A stretch of DNA of 48,240 nucleotides from Paracoccaceae bacterium (GCA_030625695.1 DAOUQK010000001.1:1-48240), one strand, 5' to 3'. Numbered from the stretch's first letter, positions 13,910 to 28,655 are shown. The notes: generated from the letters alone by a model not told the origin. A program made the numbers and translations.

Positions 13910-13918
13910 TGGGTTGGT

Positions 13919-15202
13919 TTACTTCTTGACCCAGCTGGGCAGAACAAACTCACCTGTTTTGAACTTGTCAGGATAGACAACGGCGTTTGTGCCGTCTTCA
14001 TACCACTGGATCACCACCATCGAAGGCGCGCCTTCGTCATAAGGCTCGGTGATGTCAAAACGGATGTTGTGCGGATAGGCCCGGCCGGTGCGCGGCTCAA
14101 TCTCGTCATTGCCCCACCAGCCCCAACGCAGCCACATTTCGCCGTCTTTCTTAAAGATATCGTCCTGCTTTTCCATCGCAGGAACCCAGGCATCAAGTTC
14201 AAACCCGCCAGCCTCTTCGGCAGCGGCCATTGCCTGCTTCAACCCGTGATAGGCGTTATAGCCGTTGAAATGCGGGATCGAGGGCCGTGTATCGTAACGT
14301 GCCTGATATTGCGCAAGGAACTCGGCATTGACCGGGTCCAGCGCAAAGCCAAGCGACGGCACCGGCGACAAGGTCGAGATGCCACCACCGGCACCACCTG
14401 TGTCTTCCCAGAACTCATGACCAAGGGCCGCGACATTGACGCCGGTCATGCCCATCGGCACTTGCAGTTTCACATATTGGCTGGAAACCACCTGAGAGTT
14501 GACGGATGAGACGAGATAGATGAAATCCGCGCCCGAGGCTTCGGCTTTGGCGAATATCGGCGCGAAATCATTGGTGGTGATGTCAAACGAAATGATTTCT
14601 GTCACGTCTATGCCGGCATTGGGTGCCAGTGCTTCGGTCACAAGGCCGGTGATCGCGCCGCCAAAGGCAGTGTCTTCGGCCAAAATGACCACCGAGTCCC
14701 AGCCCATCTTTTCCTTAAGAACGTCTTTGCCAAAGTCGATGTAAAGCGTGGCAAGGGCCTCGTCCGAGGCAATGTTCATGAAATAGGGCCGCATCGAATC
14801 ATAATCATCGACAATCATGTCGATGATGCCCACATACGACGTCCATGTATCCAAAGTCGGGATCTGGAATTCCTGCATTCTCGGCAGCCAACCCAAGCTT
14901 ACATCGTCAATCGAGCCGGAAATGATAAAGTCGACCTCTTCGGTCTCGGCCAGAAATTCATAAGCTTTGACGCCTTCGGTCACGTCCTCGCCGGTGTCGG
15001 CCTTGACCAATACAATCTGTTGACCAAGAACGCCGCCTTTGGCGTTCAACTCGTCAATCGCCATCTCGGCACCGCGCAAGGTGCTAAGGCCGGTGTCGGA
15101 TGAAAGCGAGCCGATAAAGCCCACCTTGATCTCGGCTGATGCGGCTGTGGCCATCAGGGCCATGGCCCCCAAAAGCGCAGCACTATTTCTTAGAATTGTC
15201 AT
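13919..15202 (-). CDS. Liv-type (Peripla_BP_6-like) ABC transporter substrate-binding protein, ligand unknown
   Basis: ORF 13919..15289. The preferred start is ATG 15202, with a GGGGGAAATA Shine-Dalgarno sequence upstream. MTILRNSAALLGAMALMATAASA is a signal peptide. The mature part begins EIKVGFIGSLSSDTG. At 427 aa it is longer than a typical LivJ. Confidence 0.85.
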   Translation of the reverse strand: MTILRNSAALLGAMALMATAASAEIKVGFIGSLSSDTGLSTLRGAEMAIDELNAKGGVLGQQIVLVKADTGEDVTEGVKAYEFLAETEEVDFIISGSIDDVSLGWLPRMQEFQIPTLDTWTSYVGIIDMIVDDYDSMRPYFMNIASDEALATLYIDFGKDVLKEKMGWDSVVILAEDTAFGGAITGLVTEALAPNAGIDVTEIISFDITTNDFAPIFAKAEASGADFIYLVSSVNSQVVSSQYVKLQVPMGMTGVNVAALGHEFWEDTGGAGGGISTLSPVPSLGFALDPVNAEFLAQYQARYDTRPSIPHFNGYNAYHGLKQAMAAAEEAGGFELDAWVPAMEKQDDIFKKDGEMWLRWGWWGNDEIEPRTGRAYPHNIRFDITEPYDEGAPSMVVIQWYEDGTNAVVYPDKFKTGEFVLPSWVKK

Positions 15203-15243
15203 TATTTCCCCCTGTTTTGTTGGTTCGATATCTTTTTCGTATC

Positions 15244-15277
15244 CTGTATACAGTACACGAAGGCGGTATTCTGTCAA
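15244..15277 (-). promoter_or_regulatory. Operator/promoter A upstream of the Liv-type transporter genes
   Basis: Palindrome CTGTATACAG (15244-15253); TGTATACAGTA is identical to sites B and C. On the minus strand a -35-like TTGACA (15272-15277) lies 16 nt upstream of TACTGT, which overlaps the palindrome. Confidence 0.55.
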
Positions 15278-15344
15278 CAAGCCTAGCACCTTGGGCCTTC
15301 GAATGCTTGGGAAATCCCATTTGCCGGCTGTGCGGCTTTAGTGG

Positions 15345-15758
15345 TCAGTCAAATTCAATCACGCCTTGTGGGTCGTGAATAATTGCATCGACAGATATTT
15401 CCACCATCATTCCGGGGGTTGTCAGCCCAGCCTCGACCGCCGTTGTGACTGGTAAAATGCCGTCGAACACTTCGCCATGGGCTTTGACAAATCCAGCCGC
15501 TGCGGCCTGCATATCCGAAAGAAACACGGTCGTTCGCACCACATGGCGCATGTCCGCGCCCACCTCTTTCAACGCGTCATCAATCCGCTTTAACGCGAAT
15601 ATTGTCTGCGCATACGCATCATTTGGCGCATGCAGCTTACCGCTTGGTTCTATCGCCGTGGTGCCGGCCACAAACACAAACGGGCCAACCCGCTTGGCCC
15701 GCGCATACGATCCGATTTCTTCAAACCGCCCGCCGGACTGGACAATCCGCAGGGTCAT
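15345..15758 (-). CDS. RidA/YjgF-family (reactive enamine/imine deaminase-like) protein; last gene of the BMC operon
   Basis: 137 aa. Its length and motifs (VFVAGTTAI, VVRTTVFL, VEISVDAI) fit the YjgF/RidA fold. An ATGA overlap joins it to the upstream MDH-like gene. Confidence 0.8.
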   Translation of the reverse strand: MTLRIVQSGGRFEEIGSYARAKRVGPFVFVAGTTAIEPSGKLHAPNDAYAQTIFALKRIDDALKEVGADMRHVVRTTVFLSDMQAAAAGFVKAHGEVFDGILPVTTAVEAGLTTPGMMVEISVDAIIHDPQGVIEFD

Positions 15759-16942
15759 TTCAGGCCCAAACGGACACGAATCGCATCGGCGGCAGCATGC
15801 AGGGCGGCGTGTTCGGTATCGGTAAGGGTCAGTTGTTCCACCTTCACCAGCCCGCTTTGACCCAGATGGGCGGGGACGCCCAGAACCACGCCGTTGACGC
15901 CAAATTCTCCTTCCAACATGACCGATACAGGCACCGGGCCGGTCCGCGCCCCGCGAATATGATCCAGCAATTCGACCGAAGAATGCGCCGGTGCAATCGT
16001 CGCCGACCCGGTCTTGCGCAAGGCAACAACCTGTCCGCCACCAGTGATCGCGTCCTTCACGCAGGCGTCAATCTGCTCTTGCGTAAGGTATATATCCAAC
16101 GGTCGCCCCTTGATGCGCGCATGCGACGGGATTGGCGCCATTTCATCGCCGTGGCTGCCCAGAGTAAACGCAGATACATCGCCCGGATTAACCCCGGCGG
16201 CCTGCGCCAAAGCATTACGGAACCGCGAGGAATCCAGCGTCCCGGCCATGCCCAAAACCCGTTCGCGGGGAAACCCCGTGGCGCGCAGCATTTCGACCGT
16301 CATTTCGTCCAGGGGGTTGGTCACCACAATCACAATCGCCCCGGGGGCCTGCGATTTGATCGCTTCGGCGGTGGAATGGATCACCCGCTTGTTGGTCTCG
16401 ATCAGGTCGGCCCGGGTCATCCCCGGACCGCGGGCGCGCCCCGCTGTCACCACAATGACCTCGGCTCCCGACACCATGTTCAGTGATGTGCCGCCAGTGA
16501 CCCGCGCACGGGTTCGGGTGATGCCGCTGGCGTGGTTGAGGTCCAGCGCGGTCGCTTCGGCGACGCCGGGTGCGATATCAATCAGGGCTATTTCATCGGC
16601 GATATCGGTATTGGCGGCAAGGTGGGCAATGTTGCTGCCAACGCCGCCCGCGCCAACCAGCGCGATTTTACTGAACCGTCTGGCACTTGGGGCTGGTTGT
16701 TTGCCGGGTGCCACCCATTTTGGCGATCGGCGGTAAAGGGCGCGGCGCATTGAGGTGGCACCATCGCTGCGCGCGGGCGTCGGCATTTCCAACGGCCCGT
16801 CCAGCAGTTTGATGCCATTACGTGCCGCCGTCTCAACCGCCAATGCGGTGACGATATCACCGGGTAAGACTTCGAACACCAGACGTCCACGCTGGCGCGC
16901 GTCCTCGATCAATTCCGAGCCTATGACACGCGGTTTGGCCAC
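15755..16942 (-). CDS. LDH-type malate/lactate dehydrogenase paralogue with a roughly 90-aa N-terminal extension
   Basis: Residues from about 92 show KIALVGAGGVGSNIAHL (Rossmann fold), DIAPGVAEATALDLNH and VVTAGRARGPGMTRADL, with Arg at the specificity position as in MDHs. They also show VTNPLDEMT, GMAGTLDSSRFR and LGSHGDEM (catalytic His). Residues 1-91 have no MDH/LDH counterpart. Confidence 0.8.
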   Translation of the reverse strand: MAKPRVIGSELIEDARQRGRLVFEVLPGDIVTALAVETAARNGIKLLDGPLEMPTPARSDGATSMRRALYRRSPKWVAPGKQPAPSARRFSKIALVGAGGVGSNIAHLAANTDIADEIALIDIAPGVAEATALDLNHASGITRTRARVTGGTSLNMVSGAEVIVVTAGRARGPGMTRADLIETNKRVIHSTAEAIKSQAPGAIVIVVTNPLDEMTVEMLRATGFPRERVLGMAGTLDSSRFRNALAQAAGVNPGDVSAFTLGSHGDEMAPIPSHARIKGRPLDIYLTQEQIDACVKDAITGGGQVVALRKTGSATIAPAHSSVELLDHIRGARTGPVPVSVMLEGEFGVNGVVLGVPAHLGQSGLVKVEQLTLTDTEHAALHAAADAIRVRLGLK

Positions 16943-17569
16943 TTAGGCGGCCTTTCCGTCGACCGCTTCAATCGCCGCCACCGCGGCGTCCATCCCGGCC
17001 TTGACTGAATCTTCTGAGCCGGAAATGAACAGGCGGCCATAGCGCCCCACCGCGCGGACCTCGACGATATCGATTTCCGAGGCCTTTTCGGCCTCATTCG
17101 CGGCGATAGAGATATAGGCCGCCGGGGCGCATTCGATGATACCAAGCGTCTGGCCCGGGACCAACAACGCACCCTTGCGCCATTTGTTAAGCAATTGCGC
17201 CTGATAGGGTTCGACCGAAGTGATGATCTGGGTGGTGCCGATATGCGGCTTGATCCGGTCGGCCATGGTAGCACCAAGTTCGTCCAGTATGGCATCCCTT
17301 GCGGCAGACACTTCGGCGTTTGACCGCGAACGAAGGATGAAGAACCCGAATTCCCGTTCCACTAATTGCGTCGTTGCCTCAACCGAACTGGCCTTTAGCG
17401 CCCGGTCAATCAGGGTGAACACACCGTTGCCGGGGGCAAATTCGCCGATCAGCACCGTGTCGCCCGAGAGCGGAACCGAGCCTTGCACGGTCGCGCCGTT
17501 ATAGGCGGCGAACTTGGGCTGCAGATTGTCGATCTGCATCAGGGCACGGATGATTATGTCGCTGCTCAT
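16943..17569 (-). CDS. BMC-T shell protein (tandem, EutL/PduB-like permuted BMC domains)
   Basis: 208 aa, consisting of two BMC-fold halves. The second half, TQIITSVEPYQAQLL...GIIECAPAAYISIAANEAEKASEIDIVEVRAVGRYGRLFISGSEDSVKAGMDAAVAAIE, parallels the EutL pattern (...[23 protein letters not shown]...FLTGSQAA...). Its stop abuts the next start. Confidence 0.8.
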   Translation of the reverse strand: MSSDIIIRALMQIDNLQPKFAAYNGATVQGSVPLSGDTVLIGEFAPGNGVFTLIDRALKASSVEATTQLVEREFGFFILRSRSNAEVSAARDAILDELGATMADRIKPHIGTTQIITSVEPYQAQLLNKWRKGALLVPGQTLGIIECAPAAYISIAANEAEKASEIDIVEVRAVGRYGRLFISGSEDSVKAGMDAAVAAIEAVDGKAA

Positions 17570-17572
17570 GGG

Positions 17573-18955
17573 TTATTCTCCGCCATATTCTTTGTAGATG
17601 TCGCGCCAGGGTCGGCTTTCATACGCCACCCGCTTGATATTGATCAGATGCAGGGCGGTGACATTGTCCGAGGTGATCGACCCCGACCAGGTGCCCGTGC
17701 CCAGCATGAAACTTGGTTCCAGATCGGTGGAATACCCCATGCCGCCCAGGATGCCGGGTGTGTTGACCAGAACGCGCCCCGTCGGCACGGAGGAAAATTG
17801 CGCAACAATTGACGGGTCGTCCGCGTGGATCACCGAGGAATGGCCCCAACCTTCGAATTTCGCGATGTTATGGGCAATCTCGATACCTTGATCGCTGTCA
17901 CGGGCCTCATAGAACGCCAATACCGGGTTCAGCTTTTCGGCTGAAAGGGGCCGGTGCCAGCCAATCTCGCTCTCCTCCGAAACCAGACAGCGGGTCCGGG
18001 GCGGGATTGAAAACCCGGCTGCGTCTGCCAGTGCCTGAGGCGATTGGCCGACGCGCTCGGGGTTCATCGCTTGCCGACCGTTAAAGATAACCTTAGCCAG
18101 ACGATCTGCCTCGGCAGGGGTGCAGAAATACGCACCCTTTAGTTTTAATTCATGGCGCAAATCACGGGCAATTTCACGGTCGGCAATAACCGCCTGTTCC
18201 GAAACGCAGGCCGTGCCATAGTCGAACGCCTTGGACATGACGATCATTTCAGCGACTTCACCTATGTCGTCCTTCTTGGACTTGTGAACATAACACGGCA
18301 CATTGCCGGCCCCTACGGCCAGTGTCGGTTTGCCCGAGGAATAGGCCGCCTTGACCATCGCCGGGCCACCCGTCGCCATGACCACCGAAGTGCGCCGGTG
18401 GCGCATTAACTCAGCCGTGCCTTGGATTGTCACCTCTTCCAGACATTGGATCAGCCCCTTGGGCGCACCCATTTGTTCGGCCACGTCGGCCATGATGCGT
18501 ACGGTTTCAATGCCACAGCGCACGCCGCGCGGGTGTGGCGCGCAAACAATGGCATTGCCGGCCTTTACCGCTGACAAAACCTTGAAAATGATGGTTGATG
18601 TAGGGTTGGTCACCGGCACCAAGGCGGCAACCACGCCCATCGGTTCGCCAAAGGCGGCGACTTTGGTGGCCTCATCGCTCCATAACATGCCCAACGTGGT
18701 CACATCACGCAGGTAATCCGCCACTGACAAAGCGTTGAACAGGTTTTTGACCCGCTTGTCTTCGACATTGCCGTATCCGGTTTCTTCCACCGCCAATTGA
18801 CCCAAGCGCAGCGCTTCTGGCTCAACGGCGCGGGCCATGGCATCAACAATGGCATCAACTTGTTTGGGGTCCGTGCCCAGAAACGCGCGGTATGCCTCAA
18901 ACGCGCTTTCGGCGCAGCGACGCGCGGCGGCGATTGATTTCAGGTCTGCGTCCAT
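17573..18955 (-). CDS. CoA-acylating aldehyde dehydrogenase (stand-alone AdhE-N-terminal type)
   Basis: 460 aa. By my recollection of the AdhE sequence it aligns from residue 1 with the aldehyde-dehydrogenase half of AdhE. Shared motifs are QLAVEETGYGNVEDK, PVTNPTST, GAGNVPCYV, FDYGTACVSEQ (catalytic Cys) and HLINIKRVA. Confidence 0.85.
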   Translation of the reverse strand: MDADLKSIAAARRCAESAFEAYRAFLGTDPKQVDAIVDAMARAVEPEALRLGQLAVEETGYGNVEDKRVKNLFNALSVADYLRDVTTLGMLWSDEATKVAAFGEPMGVVAALVPVTNPTSTIIFKVLSAVKAGNAIVCAPHPRGVRCGIETVRIMADVAEQMGAPKGLIQCLEEVTIQGTAELMRHRRTSVVMATGGPAMVKAAYSSGKPTLAVGAGNVPCYVHKSKKDDIGEVAEMIVMSKAFDYGTACVSEQAVIADREIARDLRHELKLKGAYFCTPAEADRLAKVIFNGRQAMNPERVGQSPQALADAAGFSIPPRTRCLVSEESEIGWHRPLSAEKLNPVLAFYEARDSDQGIEIAHNIAKFEGWGHSSVIHADDPSIVAQFSSVPTGRVLVNTPGILGGMGYSTDLEPSFMLGTGTWSGSITSDNVTALHLINIKRVAYESRPWRDIYKEYGGE

Positions 18956-20148
18956 TACCGTGTCCCTGCTGCAATTGCGTCCATCACCCTGCGGGCGCTG
19001 TCGATGTCACTGGCTTCGATACCGATAGTTTCAAGGCGCCGACCTGCGGCGGCGACATCCGCGCCCAAAATGCTGGACGCCAATGTGACCATCGACTGCG
19101 TTACCGGCACGTCAACGCCTGCCAGCTTCGCGGCAGAGATCAGCGGCACAAACGACCCGATCACCCCGTCGCGCATAAGAGTATTCGCGGCCTTCTGATC
19201 AGGGATACCTCGCGCGCCCGCGCCGCGTAGCGCGCCTGCGTGGATCCGCACCCAAGCGTCCGTATCCGGCAAGTTTCGCAGGCCAAAGGCCTGCGCCACC
19301 AAACGCCGTTCCTGCGCCAGACGATTAATCACCGCCCTGTGCTGTGTCCCAATAAGCGAAGCGAACGTTGCATTTTCATCCAATGCCACCCCGCCCATCG
19401 GCACAGGCGCGCCAGCGCCTTCCAACCCCGGACCGCCCAACAGCAAAGCAGGCAATTCCACCAAGGCAGAGCCGTCGGCAAAGCCGCTTTCCAACACCGA
19501 TGCCTGTTCTACCAGATCCGGTAAATACCGCGCCAACCCGCGCAATACGTCCGAGCGCCCGCGCGGCAAGGTCGCGGCAGCGACCGGGCCAACAGCGGAA
19601 AGCGTCAGTGTCGCGCCGGTTTCGGAGATCCAATACGGCAAGCCTTGGGCTTCGACCAAAGTGATATCCGCCGTACAACCACCGATGCGTAACATCCAGG
19701 CGGCCTCAAGCGCGCCCAGCGAGCGCCCCGGGGCCAGAACCAACACCTGACCATCTTGCAGATGATCCGCCAGAACCATCGCATAGGTGCGCATTTTGTG
19801 CACCGGACCGGTCAGGAAAATCACATCGGCCTTGGCCACCGCTCCGTCCAGTTCCGCCGTGGTACGAATAGAAGGCCCCGCGTCGCGATCCACCGCATAG
19901 GTGCCAACCGGCCCGTCGCCGCGAATGGTCACGCCGCTTGAGGCGCGCAACATCTGCACCTCGGCGCCGTAGGCCGAAAACAACGTTACATCCGCGCCCT
20001 CGGCCAGGCACAACGCCGCCAAAAGACGCCCTTCGACCCCGCCGCCAAGCACTGCGACACGGGACAATTCTGGCGCGTTTATCGCCACCCTTGTCCCGCC
20101 GCTTACTTTAGCAACCGCTTCTGTGAATTCCTCAAATCCGCCAGCCAT
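18955..20148 (-). CDS. Opine (octopine/nopaline) dehydrogenase-family-like NAD(P) oxidoreductase with an N-terminal amphipathic extension
   Basis: 397 aa. RVAVLGGGVEGRLLAALCLAEGADVTLF is a Rossmann fold. The middle and C-terminal region (LAPGRSLGALE, ...ENATFASLIGTQHRAVINRLAQERRLVAQAFGL...) resembles the Octopine_DH domain. The family call rests on motif recollection only. Confidence 0.55.
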   Translation of the reverse strand: MAGGFEEFTEAVAKVSGGTRVAINAPELSRVAVLGGGVEGRLLAALCLAEGADVTLFSAYGAEVQMLRASSGVTIRGDGPVGTYAVDRDAGPSIRTTAELDGAVAKADVIFLTGPVHKMRTYAMVLADHLQDGQVLVLAPGRSLGALEAAWMLRIGGCTADITLVEAQGLPYWISETGATLTLSAVGPVAAATLPRGRSDVLRGLARYLPDLVEQASVLESGFADGSALVELPALLLGGPGLEGAGAPVPMGGVALDENATFASLIGTQHRAVINRLAQERRLVAQAFGLRNLPDTDAWVRIHAGALRGAGARGIPDQKAANTLMRDGVIGSFVPLISAAKLAGVDVPVTQSMVTLASSILGADVAAAGRRLETIGIEASDIDSARRVMDAIAAGTR

Positions 20149-20165
20149 GGACCCGTCCCCTTAGC

Positions 20166-20474
20166 CTAGTCCGCAGACCCGGACCCTAGTGCGTCGAGAA
20201 TGCCTTCAAGTTCATCATGTGGCCGTGCGATCACGTGCACCGATACTACATCGCCGATCTTGTTGGCGGCTGTGGCCCCGGCATCGGTCGCCGCCTTCAC
20301 CGCCCCGACTTCACCGCGCACCAGCGTGGTGATCAGACCGCCGCCGGCTTTGGTTTGGCCCAGAATTGTCACGCTGGCCGCTTTGACCATCGCATCCGCC
20401 GCCTCGATCGAGGCGACGAGGCCACGGGTTTCGATCATTCCAAGGGCCATCTGGCCCGCTGCTGGTTTTGCCAT
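20166..20474 (-). CDS. BMC-H shell protein (hexamer, PduA/EutM-like)
   Basis: 102 aa: [77 protein letters not shown]. This is a near-canonical BMC domain. The edge Lys (AMVK) and the RPH Arg are present, and the pore loop is KAGGGL as in EutM. Confidence 0.95.
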
Positions 20475-20494
20475 GTCTTAAGTCCTTCTATAGG

Positions 20495-20770
20495 TTATTT
20501 TTTCTTTGATATCGTAATGTGTTCAACGATTGCGATGATGCATGCATCAATCGGCACCCCGGCCAGCCCGGCGGGCAGACGCGCACCAGAACCGGTCACG
20601 ATCATCACAGTATCGCCAACGCCAGCACCGCAGGTATCAGCCGCCACCACCGACGGCTCCAACACTTTGCCGGACCCGTCAATAATGTCGCATAACAACA
20701 GCTTATGACCGGTCAGTTGGGCTTCTTTGGCCGTCGCTGTGACCGTGCCGATGACTTTTGCCACTCGCAT
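20495..20770 (-). CDS. BMC-P vertex protein (pentamer, EutN/CcmL/PduN family)
   Basis: 91 aa: MRVAKVIGTVTATAKEAQLTGHKLLLCDIID...AADTCGAGVGDTVMIVTGSGAR...PIDACIIAIVEHI. It parallels EutN (MKLAVVTGQIVCTV...KLLMVEMID...GAGTGEWVLLVSGSSAR). Its start shares nt 20770 with the stop of the GS-like gene. Confidence 0.9.
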   Translation of the reverse strand: MRVAKVIGTVTATAKEAQLTGHKLLLCDIIDGSGKVLEPSVVAADTCGAGVGDTVMIVTGSGARLPAGLAGVPIDACIIAIVEHITISKKK

Positions 20771-22065
20771 TAGAAATTATCCCGATAACGGTCGATTTCC
20801 ACCTGCGTCACTTGCTGGGAAAAGAACTCCAACTCGCGTTCGCTCTGCTGGCAGGCCAGTTCCCACATGTCGTCGCCCATCACGCCCCTGAGCCAGTCCG
20901 ACCCTCGCGCCAATGCAATGGCGTCGCGCAGGTCAGTGGGGATGGGGGCGGCATCTTCGACCTCGTAGCCATTGCCGGTGGTCATCTCAGAAGGTTCAAT
21001 GCCCTGTTCGATGCCGTCAAGACCGGCGGCAATATCACTTGCCAACAGGAAATACGGATTGCAATCGGCCCCTGCATCGCGCTTTTCCACCCGAACGGCG
21101 CTGTCATTACCTTCAATCACCCGCAGGCCAACGGTGCGGTTATCCAGCCCCCAGGTCGTGTTGATCGGACAGAAGGTATATGGCTGGCGGCGACGATAGC
21201 CGTTGACCGTGGCACTGCCGCAAATCGAGGCTTCGGCCATGCGTTTCTGCATGCCGCCAACAAAATGACGGCCCGTTTGGTTCAACTTGCCATTGTCGGC
21301 AAAGACGTTCTTGCCGTCTTTCCATAGCGAATAGTGGCAGTGAAACCCGTTGCCGGAATCCTCATAAAACGGCTTGGCCATAAAGGTCGCTTTATAGCCA
21401 TGCGCGCCTGCCAGTTGTTTGACCAGGGAACGGAACATCACCACCCGGTCCGCCGACAGTAACGCCTCGTCGAAGCGTACATTCACTTCGACCTGGCCGG
21501 CCGCGTATTCCGGGTTTGATTGCTCAATCGGAATGCCACATTCGTTGATCTGGGTGCGGATTGGGCCAAGCACATGTTCAAGCTCTGCCGCCCTCTCAAG
21601 CCCATAAACCTGAATGCCGGAATCCCTCGGTTTGCCGGTTTCGGGATCAAGCAGATAGAATTCCAATTCGGTCCCGACCTGAACCTCAAACCCCATGTCA
21701 GCCGCGCGTTTCACCTGACGCTCAAGCATTGGGCGCGGGTCAATCGGTACTTGCTTGTGATTCATCCCCTCGGCGCGGGCAAAACACATGGCCACGCCCG
21801 GCTCCCACGGCAGGGCGACCGGTTTGGTCATCGGGAACATGTGCATGTCGGGATAACCGTTGTCGAAATTGACATACGGCGTGTCCCAGACGTCGCAGGT
21901 CATATCAATGGCGAAAAGGGCGAGCGAGTAGGCATTGCCATTATTGCAAATGTTCTCCCAATGGCTGGCCGGAATACGCTTGCCGCGCATAATGCCGTTC
22001 AGGTCTCCAAGGCCCAGAATTACCGTATGTGTTCCCTCGGGTAACGTGAAATCAGTTGACGTCAA
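20770..22065 (-). CDS. Glutamine-synthetase-family enzyme (candidate gamma-glutamyl-amine synthetase, GmaS/PuuA-like); first gene of the BMC operon
   Basis: GS catalytic motifs are present: GTELEFYLL, NPEYAAGQVEVN, ATFMAKP, GNGFHCHYSLW, NGYRRR, WGLDNRTVGLRV, RVEKRDAGADCNPYF. The track start at 22080 is a TTG sitting inside a GGGAGG Shine-Dalgarno sequence. I prefer the TTG at 22065, 7 nt after that sequence, but the start remains uncertain. Confidence 0.85.
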   Translation of the reverse strand: MTSTDFTLPEGTHTVILGLGDLNGIMRGKRIPASHWENICNNGNAYSLALFAIDMTCDVWDTPYVNFDNGYPDMHMFPMTKPVALPWEPGVAMCFARAEGMNHKQVPIDPRPMLERQVKRAADMGFEVQVGTELEFYLLDPETGKPRDSGIQVYGLERAAELEHVLGPIRTQINECGIPIEQSNPEYAAGQVEVNVRFDEALLSADRVVMFRSLVKQLAGAHGYKATFMAKPFYEDSGNGFHCHYSLWKDGKNVFADNGKLNQTGRHFVGGMQKRMAEASICGSATVNGYRRRQPYTFCPINTTWGLDNRTVGLRVIEGNDSAVRVEKRDAGADCNPYFLLASDIAAGLDGIEQGIEPSEMTTGNGYEVEDAAPIPTDLRDAIALARGSDWLRGVMGDDMWELACQQSERELEFFSQQVTQVEIDRYRDNF

Positions 22066-22103
22066 GATGCAACCTCCCAATTGCTTATGGTCTTGCGTTT
22101 AGT

Positions 22104-22138
22104 TGTATTCTGTATACAGTATTCAAAAATACAGTCAA
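22104..22138. promoter_or_regulatory. Operator/promoter B in the divergent region between the BMC operon and the flavoenzyme gene
   Basis: Tandem heptads TGTATTC-TGTATAC-AGTATTC (22104-22124) contain the palindrome CTGTATACAG (22110-22119). On the minus strand a -35-like TTGACT (22133-22138) lies 16 nt upstream of TATACA (22111-22116). Confidence 0.55.
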
Positions 22139-22169
22139 CAGCACCAAAACGACAAGGACGATTTTGATC

Positions 22170-23309
22170 ATGGCACCCAGCAACATCATTGTCGTGGGCG
22201 GTGGTATTGCCGGTACGATGACGGCGCTTGAACTTCAGCGCAAGGGTGAACAGGTGACGCTGATCGACCGGTGGGAACCGGGGCATTCGCGGGCCTCTTC
22301 AACCGATTACAACCGGGTGATCCGGGCGATTTCCGGACGGGACGAATTCTATACCAAATGGGCGCGGGAAAGCCGGTTGCGGTGGTTGGAACTTCAGGCC
22401 GAAAGTGGCCAGAATCTGATGTATGAATGCGGTGCTTTGATCCTGGCCACCGAGGGCCATTGCGATTGGGAAGACGCGACAAGTCAGACCTTCGACAAGC
22501 TTGGCGTGCCTTATTACAAGTATTCGCAGTCGGAAATTCAGCAAAGATTTCCCCAGTTTCGCGTGCCCGACATCGGCTATGCCCTGTTCGAACCCGAGGC
22601 GGGCATGCTGATGGCGCACCGCTGTGTTCTGACCGGGATCGACCTGTTCAAACGCGCGGGCGGCGTGGTGAAACGGGGCCGCGTGACCACCGATGGGTCC
22701 GAGCGGCCGATGCTGGATGGCAAGCTGCTTGAGGCGGATGTTATCATCATCGCCACTGGCCCGTGGATGTCAGATATGTTCCCGCGCACCATTAAGCCGA
22801 TCACCACAGTGATTGGTGTCAATGTGATCTATACCTCGACCCCCGACGGGTCGGACGCATTTGACATGGAAAACATGCCCTGCTGGATTGATCATGGGCG
22901 TAGTTCGTTTGGCCTGCCGTCGTCCGAAGGGTCGGGCGTCAAGGCGGCTGTGGTTATCCCTGACAAGATCGACCTTGATAACGACGAACGCCTGATCCGG
23001 CGTGAATGTCTAAGCCGCACCCGCAGTTATATCGAACACCGCTTCCCGGGGTTGGTGGGCGAAAAGGTGGTAGATTCCAAGTTCAACCAGATCATCCTGA
23101 CGCCAGATACGCATTTCATTGTCGACTGGCACCCCGAGCATGACAATGTTCTTTTCGCGGGGGGCTGTTCCGGGCATCTGTTCAAACACGCGCCCGTATT
23201 CGGCAGCTTTGTGGCCGGGGTCGCGGTTGGGGACTATGGCACGGCCGACCGGTTCAAGGTTGCCAACCGACGCAAACTTAGCCCGAAAGAAAGCCCGTCA
23301 GGACGATAA
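22170..23309 (+). CDS. Monomeric sarcosine-oxidase-like (MSOX/DAO family) FAD-dependent secondary-amine oxidoreductase
   Basis: ORF 22056..23309. The preferred start is ATG 22170, with an AAGGA Shine-Dalgarno sequence upstream. MAPSNIIVVGGGIAGTMTALEL is a GxGxxG motif. GHSRASSTDYNRVIR...RLRWLELQ matches the MSOX/SolA pattern. GGCSGHLFK resembles the region carrying the covalent-flavin Cys in MSOX-type enzymes; that point is tentative. Confidence 0.8.
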   Translation: MAPSNIIVVGGGIAGTMTALELQRKGEQVTLIDRWEPGHSRASSTDYNRVIRAISGRDEFYTKWARESRLRWLELQAESGQNLMYECGALILATEGHCDWEDATSQTFDKLGVPYYKYSQSEIQQRFPQFRVPDIGYALFEPEAGMLMAHRCVLTGIDLFKRAGGVVKRGRVTTDGSERPMLDGKLLEADVIIIATGPWMSDMFPRTIKPITTVIGVNVIYTSTPDGSDAFDMENMPCWIDHGRSSFGLPSSEGSGVKAAVVIPDKIDLDNDERLIRRECLSRTRSYIEHRFPGLVGEKVVDSKFNQIILTPDTHFIVDWHPEHDNVLFAGGCSGHLFKHAPVFGSFVAGVAVGDYGTADRFKVANRRKLSPKESPSGR

Positions 23310-23639
23310 ATCGGCGTAATGTGCCGCGTTCGGGCAGTCATAAGGATCAAACGCGCCTTCATTTCCGGCCAGAAATGCTTTGCATTCCTTGGACTTTTCA
23401 CAGGTTGTACAGGCTAGGACAATCTCTAACGCGCGCCAGCGGGTGGCGTCGATAACTTTGCCGGTGACGCCGAAATGTGCTGCCATCGCCTCCATCTGGT
23501 TACGCACCCCGGGGCGGGCATTGGCAAATGTTGCAATGTCTTCGCGCGATACGGACAGATCGGCGCAAAGCCGGTCGAGTTCCTGCGATGTCAGAATCCT
23601 TTTACGGGCCCTGTCAAACAACCCTAGTAATCCAGTCAT
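23298..23639 (-). CDS. Small Cys-motif protein (DUF6455-like), function unknown
   Basis: 113 aa with a strong AGGAGG Shine-Dalgarno sequence 9 nt upstream. C-x2-C-x5-C-x2-FL...CPN (CTTCEKSKECKAFLAGNEGAFDPYDCPN) matches my recollection of DUF6455 proteins of Rhodobacterales. Its 3' end overlaps the convergent flavoenzyme gene by 12 bp. Confidence 0.6.
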   Translation of the reverse strand: MTGLLGLFDRARKRILTSQELDRLCADLSVSREDIATFANARPGVRNQMEAMAAHFGVTGKVIDATRWRALEIVLACTTCEKSKECKAFLAGNEGAFDPYDCPNAAHYADLSS

Positions 23640-23698
23640 GCGGCTATCCTCCTGATTGCGACGCTAAAGTCTGAAAGACTGCAAGACTTTGAGGCAGA

Positions 23699-24391
23699 TC
23701 AATTTACCGGCGCGCCACGCAGTAATTTAGCCGCTTCCTTGGCCATCAGATCAACCAGCACGTCGCCAGAAACGACAGACGCCAGCCGGTCTTTGGTCTC
23801 GACAGGGGATTGTTGATCGCCTGCGTTTTTTTCAATCGCATGAGTAATAAATGCGCGGGTGAATTCCGGGTGGAATTGCACCGACATGGCCGGGAAATCA
23901 TAGGCCAGAACGCCAAACGGACAATAATCAGCACCGCCCAGAACCCTGGCCCCGGGTGGTACTTTTATCACCTGATCGCGGTGCCAGACATGGGCATCAA
24001 CGTCTTTCCCGTTCACCTTAAAGCGCCGCACGCCAACCACTTCGCCCAAACCGGCCAGTTCTGCCTTGCCGCCATAAACCTCGGCCATGAATTGATGAGC
24101 GAAACAGATACCGAAAACCGGAGCCGCCTGCGCCTTTGCTTCCAGCAAGAAGGTGCGCAAACGCCCCAACCAAGGCATATCATCATAAACGCCCTTCTCG
24201 GACCCACTCAGTACAAATCCGTCAAAATCGCCAACCTGCGGCACCGGCGTGCCAGCCGTTACTTCGATCACCGTCAGTTCATCACCCGGCATCGCCGGGG
24301 CCAGCCATTCGCGGATTGTGCGGCCTACGTGTTTGCCGCCGCCGATGTCTTCGGGCAGGTCGGTCAGGTTCAGGATGGCAATCCTTACCAA
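23699..24391 (-). CDS. Class I glutamine amidotransferase-fold protein (candidate gamma-glutamyl-amide hydrolase)
   Basis: 230 aa. The nucleophile elbow GICFAHQ and the His/Glu pair in QFHPE are present. The TTG start overlaps the upstream stop (GATTGGTAA). Confidence 0.8.
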   Translation of the reverse strand: MVRIAILNLTDLPEDIGGGKHVGRTIREWLAPAMPGDELTVIEVTAGTPVPQVGDFDGFVLSGSEKGVYDDMPWLGRLRTFLLEAKAQAAPVFGICFAHQFMAEVYGGKAELAGLGEVVGVRRFKVNGKDVDAHVWHRDQVIKVPPGARVLGGADYCPFGVLAYDFPAMSVQFHPEFTRAFITHAIEKNAGDQQSPVETKDRLASVVSGDVLVDLMAKEAAKLLRGAPVN

Positions 24392-25806
24392 TCGAACACC
24401 CGGTCAATTCCGGCCATCTTGACGCCAGTAAAGGCTGATGCCTGAAACGACAGCGCGCGCAGGTCTTCGACCTCAAGATTATGCACCGAAGACTTGCCGC
24501 AGGCCTTGGCCAGCGCCGTCATCTCCATGGTCATCGCCGTCAGATACCGCGCCACCCGCTCGGCCCCCGCCGCCGGATTCATGCGTTTTTCCAACTCAGG
24601 ATCCTGCGTTGCAATTCCCACCGGGCAACGCCCGGTATGGCAATGGTGACACGCGCCCGGAGAGGTTCCAAGCGCCTCATAATCCTCAAGATAGCGCGGT
24701 GAATTACACCCCGCCGCAATCATCGCGCCATTGCCGATCATCACTGCATCGGCACCCAGTGCGATGCACTTGGCCGCGTCCACTCCGGTGCGGATACCGC
24801 CCGCAACCACCAGCGTTACCTTGCCCGACATGCCACAGTCATCCAGTGCTTCGCGGCCCGCGCGAATGGCGCTCATGGTTGGCACACCGGTATGGTTCAA
24901 CAGCATCTCGGGCGACGCACCTGTGCCACCTTCGGCCCCATCCAGAACCACCACATCCGCACCCGCCTTGGCCGCAACGGCCACGTCGAACCGGGGGCGG
25001 GTCGCGCCCATCTTGATAAAGATCGGCACCTGGTAATTGGTGGCAATACGTAGTTCTTCGATCTTGACCGCAAGGTCGTCGGCACCCAGGAAATCCGGGT
25101 GACGGATGGTTGATCTTTGATCAACCCCTTCTGGCAAGGTGCGCATTTCAGACACCCTCGGGCTGACCTTCATGCCCAACAGCAAGCCGCCAGTGCCGGG
25201 CTTGGCCCCTTGCCCTACAACAATCTCAATCCCGTCGGCGCGGCGCAGATGGTCCAGATCAACGCCATAACGCGCCGGGGACATCTGATAGACCAGCCGT
25301 TGCGAGGCTTCGCGCTCTTCCTCAAGCATCCCGCCTTCGCCAGTGCAGGTCATTGTGCCCGCTTTGGACGCGCCATAGCCCAAAGACGCCTTGGCTGACG
25401 CCGACAACGCACCAAACGACATCGACGCGATATAGATCGGGATTTTCAACTCGATCGGCTTTTCAACCAAGCCACGTCCACCGCCCAAAATGGTCGTGGT
25501 ATCGCAGGTTTCGCGGTATCCTTCCAACGGCAACCGCGTCATGGTGGCCGGCACAAAGGTCAGATCATCAAACGTCGGCAATTGCTGGTTGAACGAGTTA
25601 TAGCCGCGCACCTGGTAGCGGCCCAATTGCGCCAATGCGTGCACTTCGGCAATCGAATCCGGGTCCCAGCGGGCCGAACCACCCTTGGCATATGATGCGG
25701 GCACCCCGGCGGGGCGGCCCTCAACAGCACCGTCACCAAATTTGATCTCGGCCTCATCGGCCATTTCGAACGGGTATTCATACGGTTTGTTCAGATCATG
25801 AGCCAT
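24385..25806 (-). CDS. FMN-binding glutamate-synthase-domain protein (GlxD/MgsC-like)
   Basis: 473 aa. ASMSFGALS, VVGQGAKPGTGG, VVLDGAEGGTGASP and VVAGGIRTG are hallmarks of the GltS FMN domain. A CHHCHTGRCPVG Cys cluster is also present. Confidence 0.9.
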   Translation of the reverse strand: MAHDLNKPYEYPFEMADEAEIKFGDGAVEGRPAGVPASYAKGGSARWDPDSIAEVHALAQLGRYQVRGYNSFNQQLPTFDDLTFVPATMTRLPLEGYRETCDTTTILGGGRGLVEKPIELKIPIYIASMSFGALSASAKASLGYGASKAGTMTCTGEGGMLEEEREASQRLVYQMSPARYGVDLDHLRRADGIEIVVGQGAKPGTGGLLLGMKVSPRVSEMRTLPEGVDQRSTIRHPDFLGADDLAVKIEELRIATNYQVPIFIKMGATRPRFDVAVAAKAGADVVVLDGAEGGTGASPEMLLNHTGVPTMSAIRAGREALDDCGMSGKVTLVVAGGIRTGVDAAKCIALGADAVMIGNGAMIAAGCNSPRYLEDYEALGTSPGACHHCHTGRCPVGIATQDPELEKRMNPAAGAERVARYLTAMTMEMTALAKACGKSSVHNLEVEDLRALSFQASAFTGVKMAGIDRVFDW

Positions 25807-26483
25807 GCGTTTGCATCCCTGCTTTCAAAATACCAAAGCCGTTGGCCCGAGATCATCTTGCGCCAGTCGCGCGATGTATCCACCAGCCCCAAAGGCTCTA
25901 AAATTGCGTCCACCTCGGCCACTTCTTCGGCGTTCGGTTCAATGGTTTCCACATCGACGCCGACGCTTTCAACCGGGCCGGCAACCCAGACTTCGCCTTG
26001 CCACAAGGCATCCGCACAGCTTTCGCCAGCCCCGCCCAAGGCGATAATCCGCCCGGAATGTGCCATGAAACCGGACTGATAGCCGATTTTTCCTTCGACC
26101 ACGATATTGCCGCCCTTCATCGCCACACCAACCCGCGGGCCGGCGTCTCCTTTGACGTGAATGGTGCCGCCCATCATCGCCGCCCCGCAGGACATGCCGC
26201 AATAGCCACCGACGGTGATCATGCCATCCGACATGCCTTCGCCCAAGGCCCAACCGGCGTTGCGTTCGATATTGATCGTGGCACCTGTGTTCAACCCGCC
26301 GCAGAAATAACCAACCGAGCCTTCGAAATGCAGGTCAGCGCCGGGCGGCAGGCCGATGCCAAGGTTATGGCGCGACAGGGTGTTGGTCACCCGGATTTTG
26401 TCACCGGCTTTGGCCGCTGTCTGCATGTCCTGATTAATCTCGCGGATATGGCGTTGGCTGACGTCGATAATGACTTCACTCAT
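25791..26483 (-). CDS. GXGXG-motif beta-helix protein (glutamate synthase C-terminal-domain-like, GlxC/MgsB-like)
   Basis: 230 aa with repeated Gly-rich turns (GSVGYFCGGL, VGGYCGMSCG, MGGTIHVKGDAG, MKGGNIVVEG). An ATGA overlap joins it to the upstream amidotransferase gene. Confidence 0.85.
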   Translation of the reverse strand: MSEVIIDVSQRHIREINQDMQTAAKAGDKIRVTNTLSRHNLGIGLPPGADLHFEGSVGYFCGGLNTGATINIERNAGWALGEGMSDGMITVGGYCGMSCGAAMMGGTIHVKGDAGPRVGVAMKGGNIVVEGKIGYQSGFMAHSGRIIALGGAGESCADALWQGEVWVAGPVESVGVDVETIEPNAEEVAEVDAILEPLGLVDTSRDWRKMISGQRLWYFESRDANAWLMI

Positions 26484-27424
26484 GCGGCCAGACTCCGGTT
26501 GCCGACGCCCCAGATGCCCATCAGGCTGGGACCGTCGTGATTGATAACATCTTCTTCGCCGGTGAACACACGGCGCACCGCCTGTTCTTCGGTCGCCACT
26601 GCCAGATCGCCATTCTTGTCGATCACCACCAGTGGTTTCATCGCAAACCGGTCTTTGGCAAAGCCAATGCCGTCGGGACGCGCAATCATATAGGTGAACA
26701 CGCCGTCGATTGAGGTGATGGATTTACGCAACGCCTGCTCCATGCTTAGCCCTGCCTTGATCTGGTCCGATACCCAAACCGCAATCAGTTCGGAATCGTT
26801 TTCGGTCAGGAAACGATAGCCCCGCCGCTCCAGCTTGTCCCGCCAGGTAAAATAATCGGTGATCTGGCCGTTATGCACAATCGCCACGTCCGAAAACGGT
26901 CGTGCCCAGAATGGGTGGCTGGCATTGGGCAACACCGAACTTTCCGTAGCCAGCCGCGCATGGCCAAGCCCGTGGGTGCCGATCATGTCGCGCACCCCGT
27001 GTTTGTCAGCCACTTCGACCGCGCTGCCGGTGTCTTTGATGATTTCCAACGACCGCCCGCAGGACTGGATTTCGATCCGGTCGGTCAGAGTGTCGGCGTC
27101 TTTGATCCAAGCGGTCAAGTCACGCGGATCGCTGATTTCCATGCGAAAACAATAATGTGCATTTTGGTCTGTGGTTATCTGTGGCTCGCTCAGAAAATCC
27201 GATCCATGACCCCGCAACACATGGGTAAAACCATCCAGATCACTGTCCATCGACGATTTGTCAAACCCCATGCCGCGTAGGGTGTAGCCGGTTTCGCGGG
27301 GTTCCGTGTAGATCGCAAAACCGGTACTGTCGGCACCACGATGCCTTTGCGCATCCATCAGTTCGACCAAATCGTGCCCGACCTTGCCTGGCGCATTCAA
27401 AATCCGACCAGCGATTCCACACAT
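26480..27424 (-). CDS. Class II (Ntn) glutamine amidotransferase-domain protein (GlxB/MgsA-like)
   Basis: ORF 26480..27493. Starting at ATG 27424 (GAGGGGA Shine-Dalgarno sequence upstream) gives MCGIAGRIL..., with the Ntn nucleophile Cys directly after Met. Confidence 0.85.
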   Translation of the reverse strand: MCGIAGRILNAPGKVGHDLVELMDAQRHRGADSTGFAIYTEPRETGYTLRGMGFDKSSMDSDLDGFTHVLRGHGSDFLSEPQITTDQNAHYCFRMEISDPRDLTAWIKDADTLTDRIEIQSCGRSLEIIKDTGSAVEVADKHGVRDMIGTHGLGHARLATESSVLPNASHPFWARPFSDVAIVHNGQITDYFTWRDKLERRGYRFLTENDSELIAVWVSDQIKAGLSMEQALRKSITSIDGVFTYMIARPDGIGFAKDRFAMKPLVVIDKNGDLAVATEEQAVRRVFTGEEDVINHDGPSLMGIWGVGNRSLAA

Positions 27425-27445
27425 GACATTCCCCTCGAAAGTGTT

Positions 27446-27478
27446 TGTATACAGTATACCGTATTCACTTAAGTTCAA
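27446..27478. promoter_or_regulatory. Operator/promoter C between the GlxBCD-like operon and the GntR gene
   Basis: Tandem heptads TGTATAC-AGTATAC-CGTATTC (27446-27466) contain TGTATACAGTA. On the minus strand a -35-like TTGAAC (27473-27478) lies 16 nt upstream of TACTGT. Extra ATACAG half-sites sit at 27522-27536. Confidence 0.55.
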
Positions 27479-27579
27479 GGCGATTCTTAACAACCTGCTT
27501 TATTGTACTCTGGATTCAGGATACAGAAATACAGAAGACTCTGCAAATTCATGCGCAAATTCACGACAAGAGGCCCGCA

Positions 27580-28242
27580 ATGCCACTTAAAAGCATCCAA
27601 CCCGCCCGCCGCCGTCTGGCTGATGAGGTGTACGAACAGTTGATCGACGCGATCATGCGACGCGAAATTGGGCCGGACGACCATCTGGTGCAGGAAAAGC
27701 TGGCGGCGGAATTACAGATCAGTCGCACGCCGGTGCGCGAGGCGCTGATGCGGCTGGAACAGGACGGTGTGCTGGAAGTGTCCAATCGCGGCAGTTTCCG
27801 GCTTTACCAGATGAACGACGCAGAAATTCGCGAGTTATACCAGGCGCGCGCGGCGGTCGAAGGGCAATCGGCGCGGATCCTCGCCAATGATCCCAAGTCC
27901 GAAGTCATTGCCAAATTGCGCGATTGTGTGCAGCGCGAAGAGAACGTCAGCGACGATTCGGCCAAAGGTTATTTCGAGGCCAACCGCAATATTCACCGCA
28001 AATTCGTCGAACTGGCAGGCAATCGGTTCCTGTTGGAGATGTTTGACATGATCTGGGGCAAGGCCATGGCGTTTCACCTGTTTGCGGCGATCGAAAACGT
28101 CGATCTGTCCAAATCTCTGGGCGCGCATATGGAATTAGTCGATGTGGTCGCCTCGGGCGATAAGGGCGCGGCGCTGGAAGCGTTCACAAACCACATTCAG
28201 GATGGGTTTGATTTGCAGATCGAAGGGCTGAGAGCCGGATGA
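27580..28242 (+). CDS. GntR-family transcriptional regulator (FadR/FCD subfamily)
   Basis: ORF 27445..28242; the preferred start is ATG 27580. The winged HTH is LAAELQISRTPVREALMRLEQDGVLEV, followed by an all-helical C-terminal domain. Confidence 0.9.
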   Translation: MPLKSIQPARRRLADEVYEQLIDAIMRREIGPDDHLVQEKLAAELQISRTPVREALMRLEQDGVLEVSNRGSFRLYQMNDAEIRELYQARAAVEGQSARILANDPKSEVIAKLRDCVQREENVSDDSAKGYFEANRNIHRKFVELAGNRFLLEMFDMIWGKAMAFHLFAAIENVDLSKSLGAHMELVDVVASGDKGAALEAFTNHIQDGFDLQIEGLRAG

Positions 28243-28655
28243 GCACGCCAGTTACACCCGACTACGCGCAAAAAGTTCTGGCCCAGTTCTTCGCCGAATG
28301 GGTGCAGGCGTTGGACCTGACGATCCTGTCCATCGACGCCGACCATGTGCTGGTGCGCATGCCTTTGGGCAAGCATCTGGCGCGGGTGGGCGGCATTGTT
28401 TCAGGTCAGGCGCTGGCGGCGTTGGCCGATACCTCGATGGTGCTGGCGGCCATGGGTCAGTGCGGCGAAGCGCGGGCCTTTGCCACCACTGATCTGCACA
28501 CGCAGTTTTTACGCCCCGGTGTCGGCACGGCGATTCTGTGCCGCGCCCGGGTGGTGCGGGCCGGCAAGGCGCTGGTGTTCACGCAGGCCGACATGACGCA
28601 AGCAGACGACGCCAAACTTGTCGCCACCGCCACCGCGACGTTTTTCGCGCCTTAA
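28239..28655 (+). CDS. PaaI-family hot-dog-fold acyl-CoA thioesterase
   Basis: 138 aa. GGIVSGQALAALADTS and the overall length fit PaaI/4HBT thioesterases. An ATGA overlap joins it to the GntR gene. Confidence 0.8.
   Translation: MSTPVTPDYAQKVLAQFFAEWVQALDLTILSIDADHVLVRMPLGKHLARVGGIVSGQALAALADTSMVLAAMGQCGEARAFATTDLHTQFLRPGVGTAILCRARVVRAGKALVFTQADMTQADDAKLVATATATFFAP

Follow-up and report, generated by a model that had tools for sequence, protein, structure and literature searches.

A shared three-unit operator at the promoters of a microcompartment-associated gene set in a Paracoccaceae bacterium, probably read by a FadR-type GntR repressor

Operator copies and genes in the window

The stretch of DNA analysed here, referred to as the window, comprises 48,240 nucleotides from a Paracoccaceae bacterium (GCA_030625695.1, DAOUQK010000001.1:1-48240). 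It carries a short repeated element in the promoter regions of a Liv/Urt-type ABC transporter, of a bacterial microcompartment (BMC) operon divergent from a flavoenzyme gene, and of a GlxBCD-like operon divergent from a GntR-family regulator gene. Judging from the sequence and its conservation, we hold with a probability of about 0.8 that a dedicated FadR-subfamily GntR repressor, encoded at 27580-28242, has this element as its operator. The operator very probably ties the transporter, the microcompartment, which is of the MIC2 type, and three amine-processing enzyme sets into one co-regulated system.

An earlier reading of the sequence alone (the sequence-only reading) had placed an 11-mer in three intergenic promoter regions, and this is borne out. 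Exact matches to TGTATACAGTA start at 15245, 22111 and 27446, while shuffled sequences gave 0.01 expected matches and none of 100 shuffles reached three. Furthermore, four of the five copies of GTATAC in the 48 kb lie within these three sites, named A, B and C. Site A is located between the genes for RidA (15345-15758, minus strand) and a LivK-type substrate-binding protein (13919-15202, minus strand). Site B lies between a glutamine synthetase-like (GS-like) gene (20770-22080, minus strand) and a DAO-family gene (22170-23309, plus strand), and site C between the GlxB gene (26480-27424, minus strand) and the GntR gene (27580-28242, plus strand).

We scanned the window with a position weight matrix built from orthologous sites in other genomes, from which every site identical to a window site had been left out. 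Only four sites were found. The best was operator B (22104-22125; TGAATACTGTATACAGAATACA on the minus strand; 38.6 bits), which is common to the divergent promoters of the GS-like/BMC operon and the DAO gene. It was followed by operator C (27446-27467; TGAATACGGTATACTGTATACA on the minus strand; 31.3 bits) at the glxB-glxC-glxD-GATase1(-DUF6455) promoter and by operator A (15238-15259; CGTGTACTGTATACAGGATACG on the minus strand, including the exact 11-mer; 30.1 bits) at the promoter of the LivK-type gene and the livHMGF operon. The fourth, operator D (27504-27536, plus strand), consists of TGTACTCTGGATTCAGGATACA followed by two copies of ATACAGAA, 45-75 nt upstream of the GntR start codon; its 22-bp matrix match at 27504-27525 scored 19.4 bits. 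The next score in the window was 7.1 bits and the maximum over 20 shuffles was 10.6 bits. We presume that operator D is the autoregulatory site of the GntR gene.

The tandem heptads described in the sequence-only reading are present at site B (TGTATTC-TGTATAC-AGTATTC) and site C (TGTATAC-AGTATAC-CGTATTC). Site A had been taken for a partial site with a GGTATTC 9 nt away, but this GGTATTC is not kept in orthologues. Site A is a full three-heptad site, CGTATCC-TGTATAC-AGTACAC (15238-15259), with its own left heptad CGTATCC on the plus strand. The extra ATACAG half-sites of the same reading do exist, but not as stray half-sites: the copies at 27521-27536 belong to the fourth site, D (27504-27525), and the one reported near 22130 starts at 22129 and is part of a conserved GTATTT box at site B. 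This extra box (22127-22134, minus strand) reads GTATTT, the reverse complement of AAATAC at 22127-22132, and overlaps the ATACAG at 22129-22134.

A scan of the window against Rfam matched no RNA family, so a riboswitch explanation for the conserved leaders found no support. Between operator D and the GntR start, the leader holds a direct repeat, GCAAATTCA-TGC-GCAAATTCA, at 27543-27563, and a near-identical repeat occurs in the related locus L001.

Four transcription units surround the sites, with their products assigned by Pfam. The first is a minus-strand operon (23298-27424), syntenic across loci, which encodes the GlxB-like amidotransferase (26480-27424), a GlxC-like GXGXG protein (25791-26483), a GlxD-like protein with an FMN-binding glutamate-synthase domain (24385-25806), a class-I glutamine amidotransferase (GATase) resembling PuuD (23699-24391) and a DUF6455 protein (23298-23639). 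The second is the plus-strand gene at 22170-23309 for a FAD-dependent amine oxidase/dehydrogenase of the DAO family (Pfam DAO, 2.7e-41). Its product is similar to monomeric sarcosine oxidase and N-methyltryptophan oxidase, scoring 190 bits against a cut-off of 257 for NCBIfam NF008425.

The third unit is the minus-strand MIC2-type BMC operon (15345-22080). It encodes, in order, the GS-like protein (20770-22080; Pfam and NCBIfam), BMC-P (20495-20770), BMC-H (20166-20474), an opine dehydrogenase-like protein resembling 6-phosphogluconate dehydrogenase (18955-20148), an acylating EutE-like aldehyde dehydrogenase (17573-18955), a BMC-T protein of 208 aa (16943-17569), a malate/lactate dehydrogenase-like protein (15755-16942) and RidA (15345-15758). 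The BMC-T protein matches the Pfam BMC domain, and its orthologue in L071 also matches CsoS1D_N. The malate/lactate dehydrogenase-like protein has an N-terminal extension of about 90 aa, its LDH domains starting from residue 92. The fourth unit is the minus-strand transporter operon (10536-15202) with the substrate-binding protein (13919-15202), two permeases (11968-13768) and two ATPases (10536-12001).

Upstream of this gene set, at 518-1960 and 3509-6107, the window encodes another DAO-family flavoprotein, which has a BFD-like [2Fe-2S] domain, as well as a TRAP transporter (DctM/DctP). There was no operator-like site in these two intervals, where the best matrix score was 4.3 bits.

Conservation of the element and its link to the GntR regulator

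We collected 72 related loci, which together with the window make up 929 kb, of which about 222 kb do not belong to pathway genes. A comparison of the opine dehydrogenase-like protein with species-representative genomes yielded five loci (Rhodobacteraceae metagenome-assembled genomes, MAGs, and one Granulosicoccus MAG). Look-ups of the GntR orthologue and of opine dehydrogenase-like homologues yielded nine, including Candidatus Rhodobacter oscarellae, Ruegeria sp. HKCCD6157 and Aliishimia ponticola. A metagenome scan with an alignment of the opine dehydrogenase-like proteins added 58. The gene order GntR <-> glxBCD-(GATase1)-(DUF6455), DAO <-> GS-BMC-P-BMC-H-OpineDH-AldDH-BMC-T-MDH-RidA, livKHMGF is highly conserved, with protein identities of 52-95% across the compared loci.

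Sites were called with a crude template, (GTATACN)x3, scored over its 18 specified positions and accepted at 14/18 or better. The region upstream of glxB held such a site in 29 of 30 loci, and that upstream of livK in about 25 of 29. Between the GS-like and DAO genes it was present, nearly invariant, in about 42 of 45 loci, with L072 adding another. The 929 kb held 105 clusters at this threshold, and 103 of them were at the glxB/GntR, GS-like/DAO or livK promoters, one of the 103 being upstream of a DUF6455 gene. The remaining two are located about 70 nt upstream of a second LivK-type substrate-binding protein gene (L029:12850) and inside a transposase gene (L009:11886), where the 14/18 match looks like chance. 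Windows of 15/18 or better numbered 214, compared with a mean of 0.3 in shuffles, and those of 16/18 or better 162, compared with none. No site of 15/18 or better was found in the roughly 222 kb outside the pathway genes.

The sequence-only reading would have been undermined by a motif that is common at unrelated positions or poorly conserved in orthologous loci. Within these loci the motif is confined almost entirely to the regulon promoters, and it is strongly kept in intergenic regions whose flanks cannot otherwise be aligned. That the three window sites are chance matches, or a dispersed repeat without regulatory role, therefore has next to no probability left. Only 0.01 matches were expected, the element is kept at orthologous intergenic positions in about 70 loci, and nothing was found in favour of this explanation, which we count as already refuted.

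From 81 unique orthologous sites we derived the consensus of the element. It is about 22 bp long and consists of three GnATAC units phased 7 bp apart, the middle one of which forms the 10-bp palindrome CTGTATACAG. The unit is written here on the gene-ward strand; on the plus strand of the window it reads GTATnC. Most core positions carry about 2 bits of information, compared with about 0-0.4 bits in the flanks, in loci where protein identity is no higher than 52-85%. Read toward the gene, the consensus is T-G[A/C/T]ATAC-T-GTATAC-W-GTATAC-A for the glxB class, (GTATTTnT)-G[A/G]ATAC-T-GTATAC-A-GAATAC-A for the GS-like class and T-GTGTAC-T-GTATAC-A-G[T/A/G]ATAC-A for the livK class. Details specific to a class, such as the GAATAC third unit at GS-like sites and the GTGTAC first unit at livK sites, are kept across genomes. 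Positions -8 to -3 of the GS-like alignment correspond to the GTATTT box, which at site B lies at a distance of 8 bp from the first unit; at these positions 31 unique sites gave G24 T24 A23 T23 T25 T24, about 1 bit at each position. In the outer units position 2 varies and position 5 is always A, on the same strand. A single 22-bp palindrome is thereby ruled out, and the units are direct repeats.

The GntR gene (27580-28242, plus strand) encodes a regulator of 220 aa with an FCD effector domain, placing it in the FadR subfamily. The gene had been noticed beside site C, and its assignment to this type is confirmed by matches to the GntR winged helix-turn-helix domain (PF00392, E 6.2e-16, residues 13-74) and to the FCD domain (PF07729, E 1e-22, residues 85-207). 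The nearest solved structures are the FCD-type GntR proteins 3fms and 3sxy (E ~1e-14). There were 761 homologous proteins at E <= 1e-30, the best 120 of which are 73-91% identical. Among 11 orthologues, the recognition-helix segment ISRTPVREALMRLE and the FCD-domain histidines H139, H183 and H205 are invariant; these histidines presumably correspond to the usual metal site of FCD domains.

Wherever an FCD-type GntR gene was seen (26 loci), it adjoins the operator-bearing glxB promoter. When loci were fetched through the GntR orthologue, the gene was always divergent from or near an operator-bearing glxBCD operon. The pair has a BMC nearby in L006, L012, L071, L072 and many metagenome loci. In most loci (L006-L012, L023, L025, L026, L040, L052 and others) there is also a site about 30-45 nt upstream of the GntR start (TTGTATTTCTGTATTCGGTATACAG...), clearer than the copy in the window. 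The GT..AC core had been said to fit the operator logic of the GntR family, and the core TGTATACA agrees with this (PMC4494728). The published operator consensus of the FadR subfamily is NyGTM-N0-1-KACNy, with TKGT/ACMA boxes (PMC4494728). The core of the element fits this rule, since CTGTATACAG holds GT-A|T-AC with 2 nt between GT and AC. Such 2-nt spacing is described for several FadR-subfamily groups, and further, weaker boxes at a distance of 7-12 nt are frequent (PMC4494728).

The element could also be a genuine operator that is bound by another transcription factor encoded elsewhere, with the GntR gene linked by coincidence or controlling something else. This would agree with the operator-bearing loci L050, L051 and L066, in which no GntR was seen within the fetched DNA, and with L005, which has a gene for a sigma-54 enhancer-binding protein beside glxB. 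We regard it as unlikely, since GntR adjoins the operator-bearing glxB promoter in every one of the 26 loci and has a site of its own, the motif has the GT-N2-AC form typical of FadR-subfamily proteins, and the operators of L005 are decayed, without a sigma-54 promoter-like site in its relevant intergenic regions. The operator is also found away from the regulator, at the BMC promoter of L050, whose 21-kb locus has no GntR or glxBCD, and of L066.

In L005, a sigma-54 enhancer-binding response regulator (966-2402, minus strand) adjoins glxB. We rejected a switch of this locus to sigma-54 control, given the lack of such a promoter-like site in the intergenic regions named above, and the neighbour may be unrelated. 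L005 serves here only as a case in which GntR is missing and the operator has decayed, which speaks for the link between the two.

Some further observations concern the surroundings of the regulator and its operators. A 4HBT-family acyl-CoA thioesterase gene (28239-28655) overlaps the GntR stop codon, as it does in L001, and is probably co-transcribed with GntR. In L006 and L010 an M20 peptidase gene follows GntR in place of the thioesterase. The thioesterase could matter for the turnover of CoA, as the BMC operon has no phosphotransacylase. In L011 an orphan LivK-type gene (14521-15864), about 4 kb beyond GntR, has a full operator upstream that is nearly identical to the glxB site of that genome, and in L029 a second LivK-type gene (12850-13127), after livF, likewise has a full operator upstream. 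These operators lie about 40-70 nt upstream of their genes, which suggests that the two LivK-type proteins are extra uptake components of the regulon.

The GS-like/DAO intergenic sequence of L002, a Rhodobacteraceae MAG, is almost identical to that of L003, the Granulosicoccus MAG (Gammaproteobacteria), and the proteins of the two loci have almost equal percent identities to those of the window. This suggests a recent horizontal transfer of the whole locus together with its operators, or a binning error.

Promoter geometry and mode of regulation

The sequence-only reading had each site overlap a -10-like hexamer lying 16 nt from TTGACA, TTGACT or TTGAAC on the minus strand, and we found the hexamers as described. 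At site A, TTGACA (15272-15277) is followed after 16 nt by TACTGT (15250-15255) within the operator, and at site C, TTGAAC (27473-27478) is followed after 16 nt by TACTGT (27451-27456), again within the operator. At site B, the minus-strand -35 hexamer TTGACT (22133-22138) is 16 nt from TATACA (22111-22116), with TACTGT (22116-22121) as an alternative -10. The opposite strand of site B has a -35 hexamer TTGCGT (22093-22098) and a -10 hexamer TACAGT (22115-22120).

The same arrangement was seen among unique orthologous sites. A conserved TTG is located at offset -12 from the operator in 17 of 27 sites of the glxB class, at -20 ±1 in 30 of 35 of the GS-like class, at -19 in 18 of 22 of the livK class and at -13/-12 in 33 of 34 of the DAO class. 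In all four promoter classes a TAC(T/A)GT lies inside the operator, 16-17 nt downstream of the conserved TTG. An operator placed over the -10 region is, we infer, the geometry of a repressor. At site B the divergent promoters would use nearly the same six base pairs, TACAGT (22115-22120, plus strand) and TACTGT (22116-22121, minus strand), and therefore one bound repressor would shut both.

The sequence could instead be conserved chiefly as a promoter element, kept for recognition by the polymerase (with an alternative sigma factor, for instance) and not for a repressor. The element is indeed always 16-17 nt downstream of the conserved TTG and holds the only -10 candidate. However, a near-invariant stretch of about 22 bp with 7-bp internal repeats and a central 10-bp palindrome far exceeds the needs of a -10 element, the same element serves both strands at site B, and it is absent from all other promoters in the 929 kb. 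We consider this explanation very improbable.

It is also unlikely, by a shade more than the involvement of a different factor, that the GntR protein binds the sites as an activator or dual regulator and not as a simple repressor. Judged by the E. coli consensus, the -10-like hexamers are poor, which frequently points to promoters that need an activator, and it is generally known that some members of the FadR family, FadR included, activate certain genes. Yet in all four promoter classes the site covers the spacer, the -10 region and the probable transcription start and does not lie upstream of or at the -35. Moreover, GntR genes that are divergent and autoregulated, and whose operators cover the core of the promoter, typically encode repressors (PMC4494728).

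Compared with other loci, the window, L001 and L064 carry about 11 nt of inserted sequence (window 22133-22160) between the ancestral -35, ccTTGtc, and operator B. The ancestral hexamer region is the reverse complement of gacaagg at about 22151-22157 of the window. The insertion made a new and better -35, the TTGACT at 22133-22138, 16 nt from TATACA. It looks as if the promoter has turned over around an unchanged operator.

Several points weigh against a dedicated GntR repressor that acts through this operator. A strict scan for the E. coli-type sigma-70 consensus found no promoter in any of the three site regions; it misses the hexamers because TACTGT matches TATAAT at only 3/6 positions. The -10 assignment thus comes from the conserved TTG spacing and not from a match to the consensus. 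The 7-bp phasing places successive units on different faces of the helix, and operator D of the window is degenerate and has lost 1 nt that orthologous sites possess. The sites counted do not represent independent events, as many of the loci are related by descent, and the scan covers 929 kb of loci and not whole genomes, so further regulon members or off-target sites may exist elsewhere. Finally, the control is not universal among BMC loci, as L005 and L041 are without a good GS/DAO site. L005 has a decayed copy (GAGTATGTTATACGGTATGCAG, about 24/32 positions matching by eye) and no GntR in 21 kb, and L041 has no GS/DAO site.

With the repressor reading retained as the most probable one, a mechanism can be proposed. 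Without inducer, one or more repressor dimers on the operator would keep RNA polymerase off the -10 region, and this occlusion of the promoters would silence the uptake system, the MIC2 microcompartment and the gamma-glutamyl/N-alkylglutamate-type enzymes at once. The regulator would limit its own synthesis through the site at its promoter, P-gntR. A small-molecule inducer, bound in the FCD domain, would release the repressor. The likeliest candidates for it would be the amine that is taken up or, among the intermediates, a carboxylate such as a gamma-glutamyl amide or an N-alkyl-glutamate.

Regulon, pathway and comparison with known systems

The core of this regulon, as read from the sequences, is GntR with glxBCD, and the BMC operon, the DAO gene and the transporter are members and not the centre. 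We see the pair as the core because it persists, together with the operator, in loci without a BMC within 10 kb (L007-L011). The sequence-only reading took the transporter, the shell and enzyme operon, the flavoenzyme and the GlxBCD-like operon for one system, and the shared operator, conserved across about 70 related loci of marine bacteria, supports it.

L007, Candidatus Rhodobacter oscarellae (LFTY01000002.1), has a GntR-glxBCD-DAO-GATase cluster with operators that adjoins a liv-type transporter. Rhodobacter lobularis, with a MIC2 locus in the catalogue of Sutter and colleagues, is a genome we take to be the same. If the two are indeed the same genome, it would offer a natural test of regulation in trans.

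The MIC2 type comprises 22 loci of Alpha- and Gammaproteobacteria and stands among the types of unknown function in the part of the catalogue considered here (Sutter et al. 2021, PMC8217296, Supplementary Data 2). By its gene content, the BMC of the window is of this catalogued type. Its shell genes are one BMC-H (20166-20474), one BMC-P (20495-20770) and one BMC-Tdp (16943-17569), the composition given for MIC2. In common with the catalogue data considered, it has an aldehyde dehydrogenase without encapsulation peptide, a pfam02866 malate/lactate dehydrogenase with an N-terminal extension, a 6-phosphogluconate dehydrogenase-like (opine dehydrogenase-like) protein and a pfam00120 GS-like protein (PMC8217296). 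The catalogue entries considered mention no regulator, DAO, glxBCD-like operon or transporter (PMC8217296). What the present comparison adds is an operator common to these genes and the BMC operon, which joins them, along with no fewer than 60 additional marine loci. The literature searched held no functional characterisation of MIC2.

Marine metagenomes carry the system widely: a search with one gene recovered 58 loci, and there are 626 homologues of the signature dehydrogenase at E <= 1e-40. Cultured carriers are Ruegeria sp. HKCCD6157, whose locus L071 has all three sites, Ruegeria profundi and Aliishimia ponticola.

A single shared regulon argues for one catabolic system. Its gene content, including the PuuD-like hydrolase, RidA and the amide/urea-like substrate-binding protein, suggests that a primary amine is catabolised via gamma-glutamyl and/or N-alkyl-glutamate intermediates and that the BMC encloses the aldehyde. 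The amine would be taken up, glutamylated and processed, and the resulting aldehyde would be handled inside the BMC by the acylating aldehyde dehydrogenase. The malate/lactate dehydrogenase-like enzyme could recycle NAD+.

The regulon recalls the N-methylglutamate pathway (GmaS, MgsABC, MgdABCD) and the Puu gamma-glutamylation pathway (PuuA-D) in that it encodes a GS-like ligase, a three-part synthase of the GlxBCD type, a hydrolase of the class-I GATase type, an aldehyde dehydrogenase and a FAD amine oxidase/dehydrogenase. In contrast to these pathways, the oxidase here is monomeric and resembles sarcosine oxidase instead of MgdABCD, and the aldehyde dehydrogenase is acylating, EutE-like and part of the BMC operon. 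No genes for an MgdABCD-type heterotetramer were present in the Pfam/NCBIfam annotation of the regulon region of the window. All enzyme scores lie below the curated NCBIfam equivalog cut-offs of the known N-methylglutamate- and Puu-type enzymes. The GS-like protein, for instance, reached 237 bits against a cut-off of 470 for GSIII and 196 against 650 for PuuA-like proteins.

Within the FadR subfamily, the system resembles the GntR, HpxS, HypR, MdcY and PrpR groups, in which a protein with a GntR winged helix-turn-helix and an FCD domain goes with a TGTATACA (GT-AT-AC) core (Suvorova et al. 2015, PMC4494728). This core occurs at least 181 times in the part of the published FadR-subfamily site table that we considered and is therefore ordinary for the family (PMC4494728). 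A divergent autoregulated regulator gene, an operator over the promoter core and weaker boxes about 7 nt from the main palindrome are likewise shared with FadR-subfamily repressors, but in the groups of that study the flanking units are inverted repeats and here they are direct ones (PMC4494728). Neither the orthologous group nor the regulon (glxBCD-like, DAO, MIC2 BMC, Liv-type transporter) was found in the portion of the site table considered (PMC4494728) or in the literature searched, which held no prior description of this operator or of a regulator for MIC2.

The known FadR-subfamily case of direct repeats is NanR (PMC4494728). The operator of E. coli NanR is (GGTATA)3; it is present at three operons and is bound by three NanR dimers (Horne et al. 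2021, PMC8012715). The present system shares with it a FadR-type GntR repressor, three tandem GTAT-containing repeats and the use of the same operator at several operons of one catabolic regulon, within the target promoter regions (PMC8012715). The three tandem direct repeats, a NanR-type feature, are thus present, but the unit is GnATAC (7-bp phase) against the GGTATA of NanR, the units being compared by sequence and not by spacing, and the centre here is a true palindrome. The cooperativity of NanR depends on a 32-residue N-terminal extension (PMC8012715), which the regulator here does not have. Its orthologues are 219-233 aa long and without an N-terminal extension, the helix-turn-helix domain starting at about residue 13 of 220. 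A NanR-like cooperative mechanism was ruled out on this ground as a basis for assigning membership.

A broader statement joins two parts: that MIC2 is the aldehyde stage of a gamma-glutamyl/N-alkylglutamate (N-methylglutamate- or Puu-like) pathway for marine amines under one repressor, and that a FadR-type repressor reads three 7-bp-phased GnATAC units without a NanR-type extension, a binding mode undescribed for the family. Based on gene content and motif structure, we offer the two together only tentatively, as a possibility that may well fail in one part or the other.

The regulon is newly delineated and its kind of regulation is known: a FadR-type repressor over the promoter core is conventional regulatory logic. 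With the shared operator, the functional unit of MIC2 extends beyond the shell operon and takes in about 17 kb of co-regulated genes. The pair of repressor and operator would also provide a route to the inducer, and hence to the substrate of the pathway.

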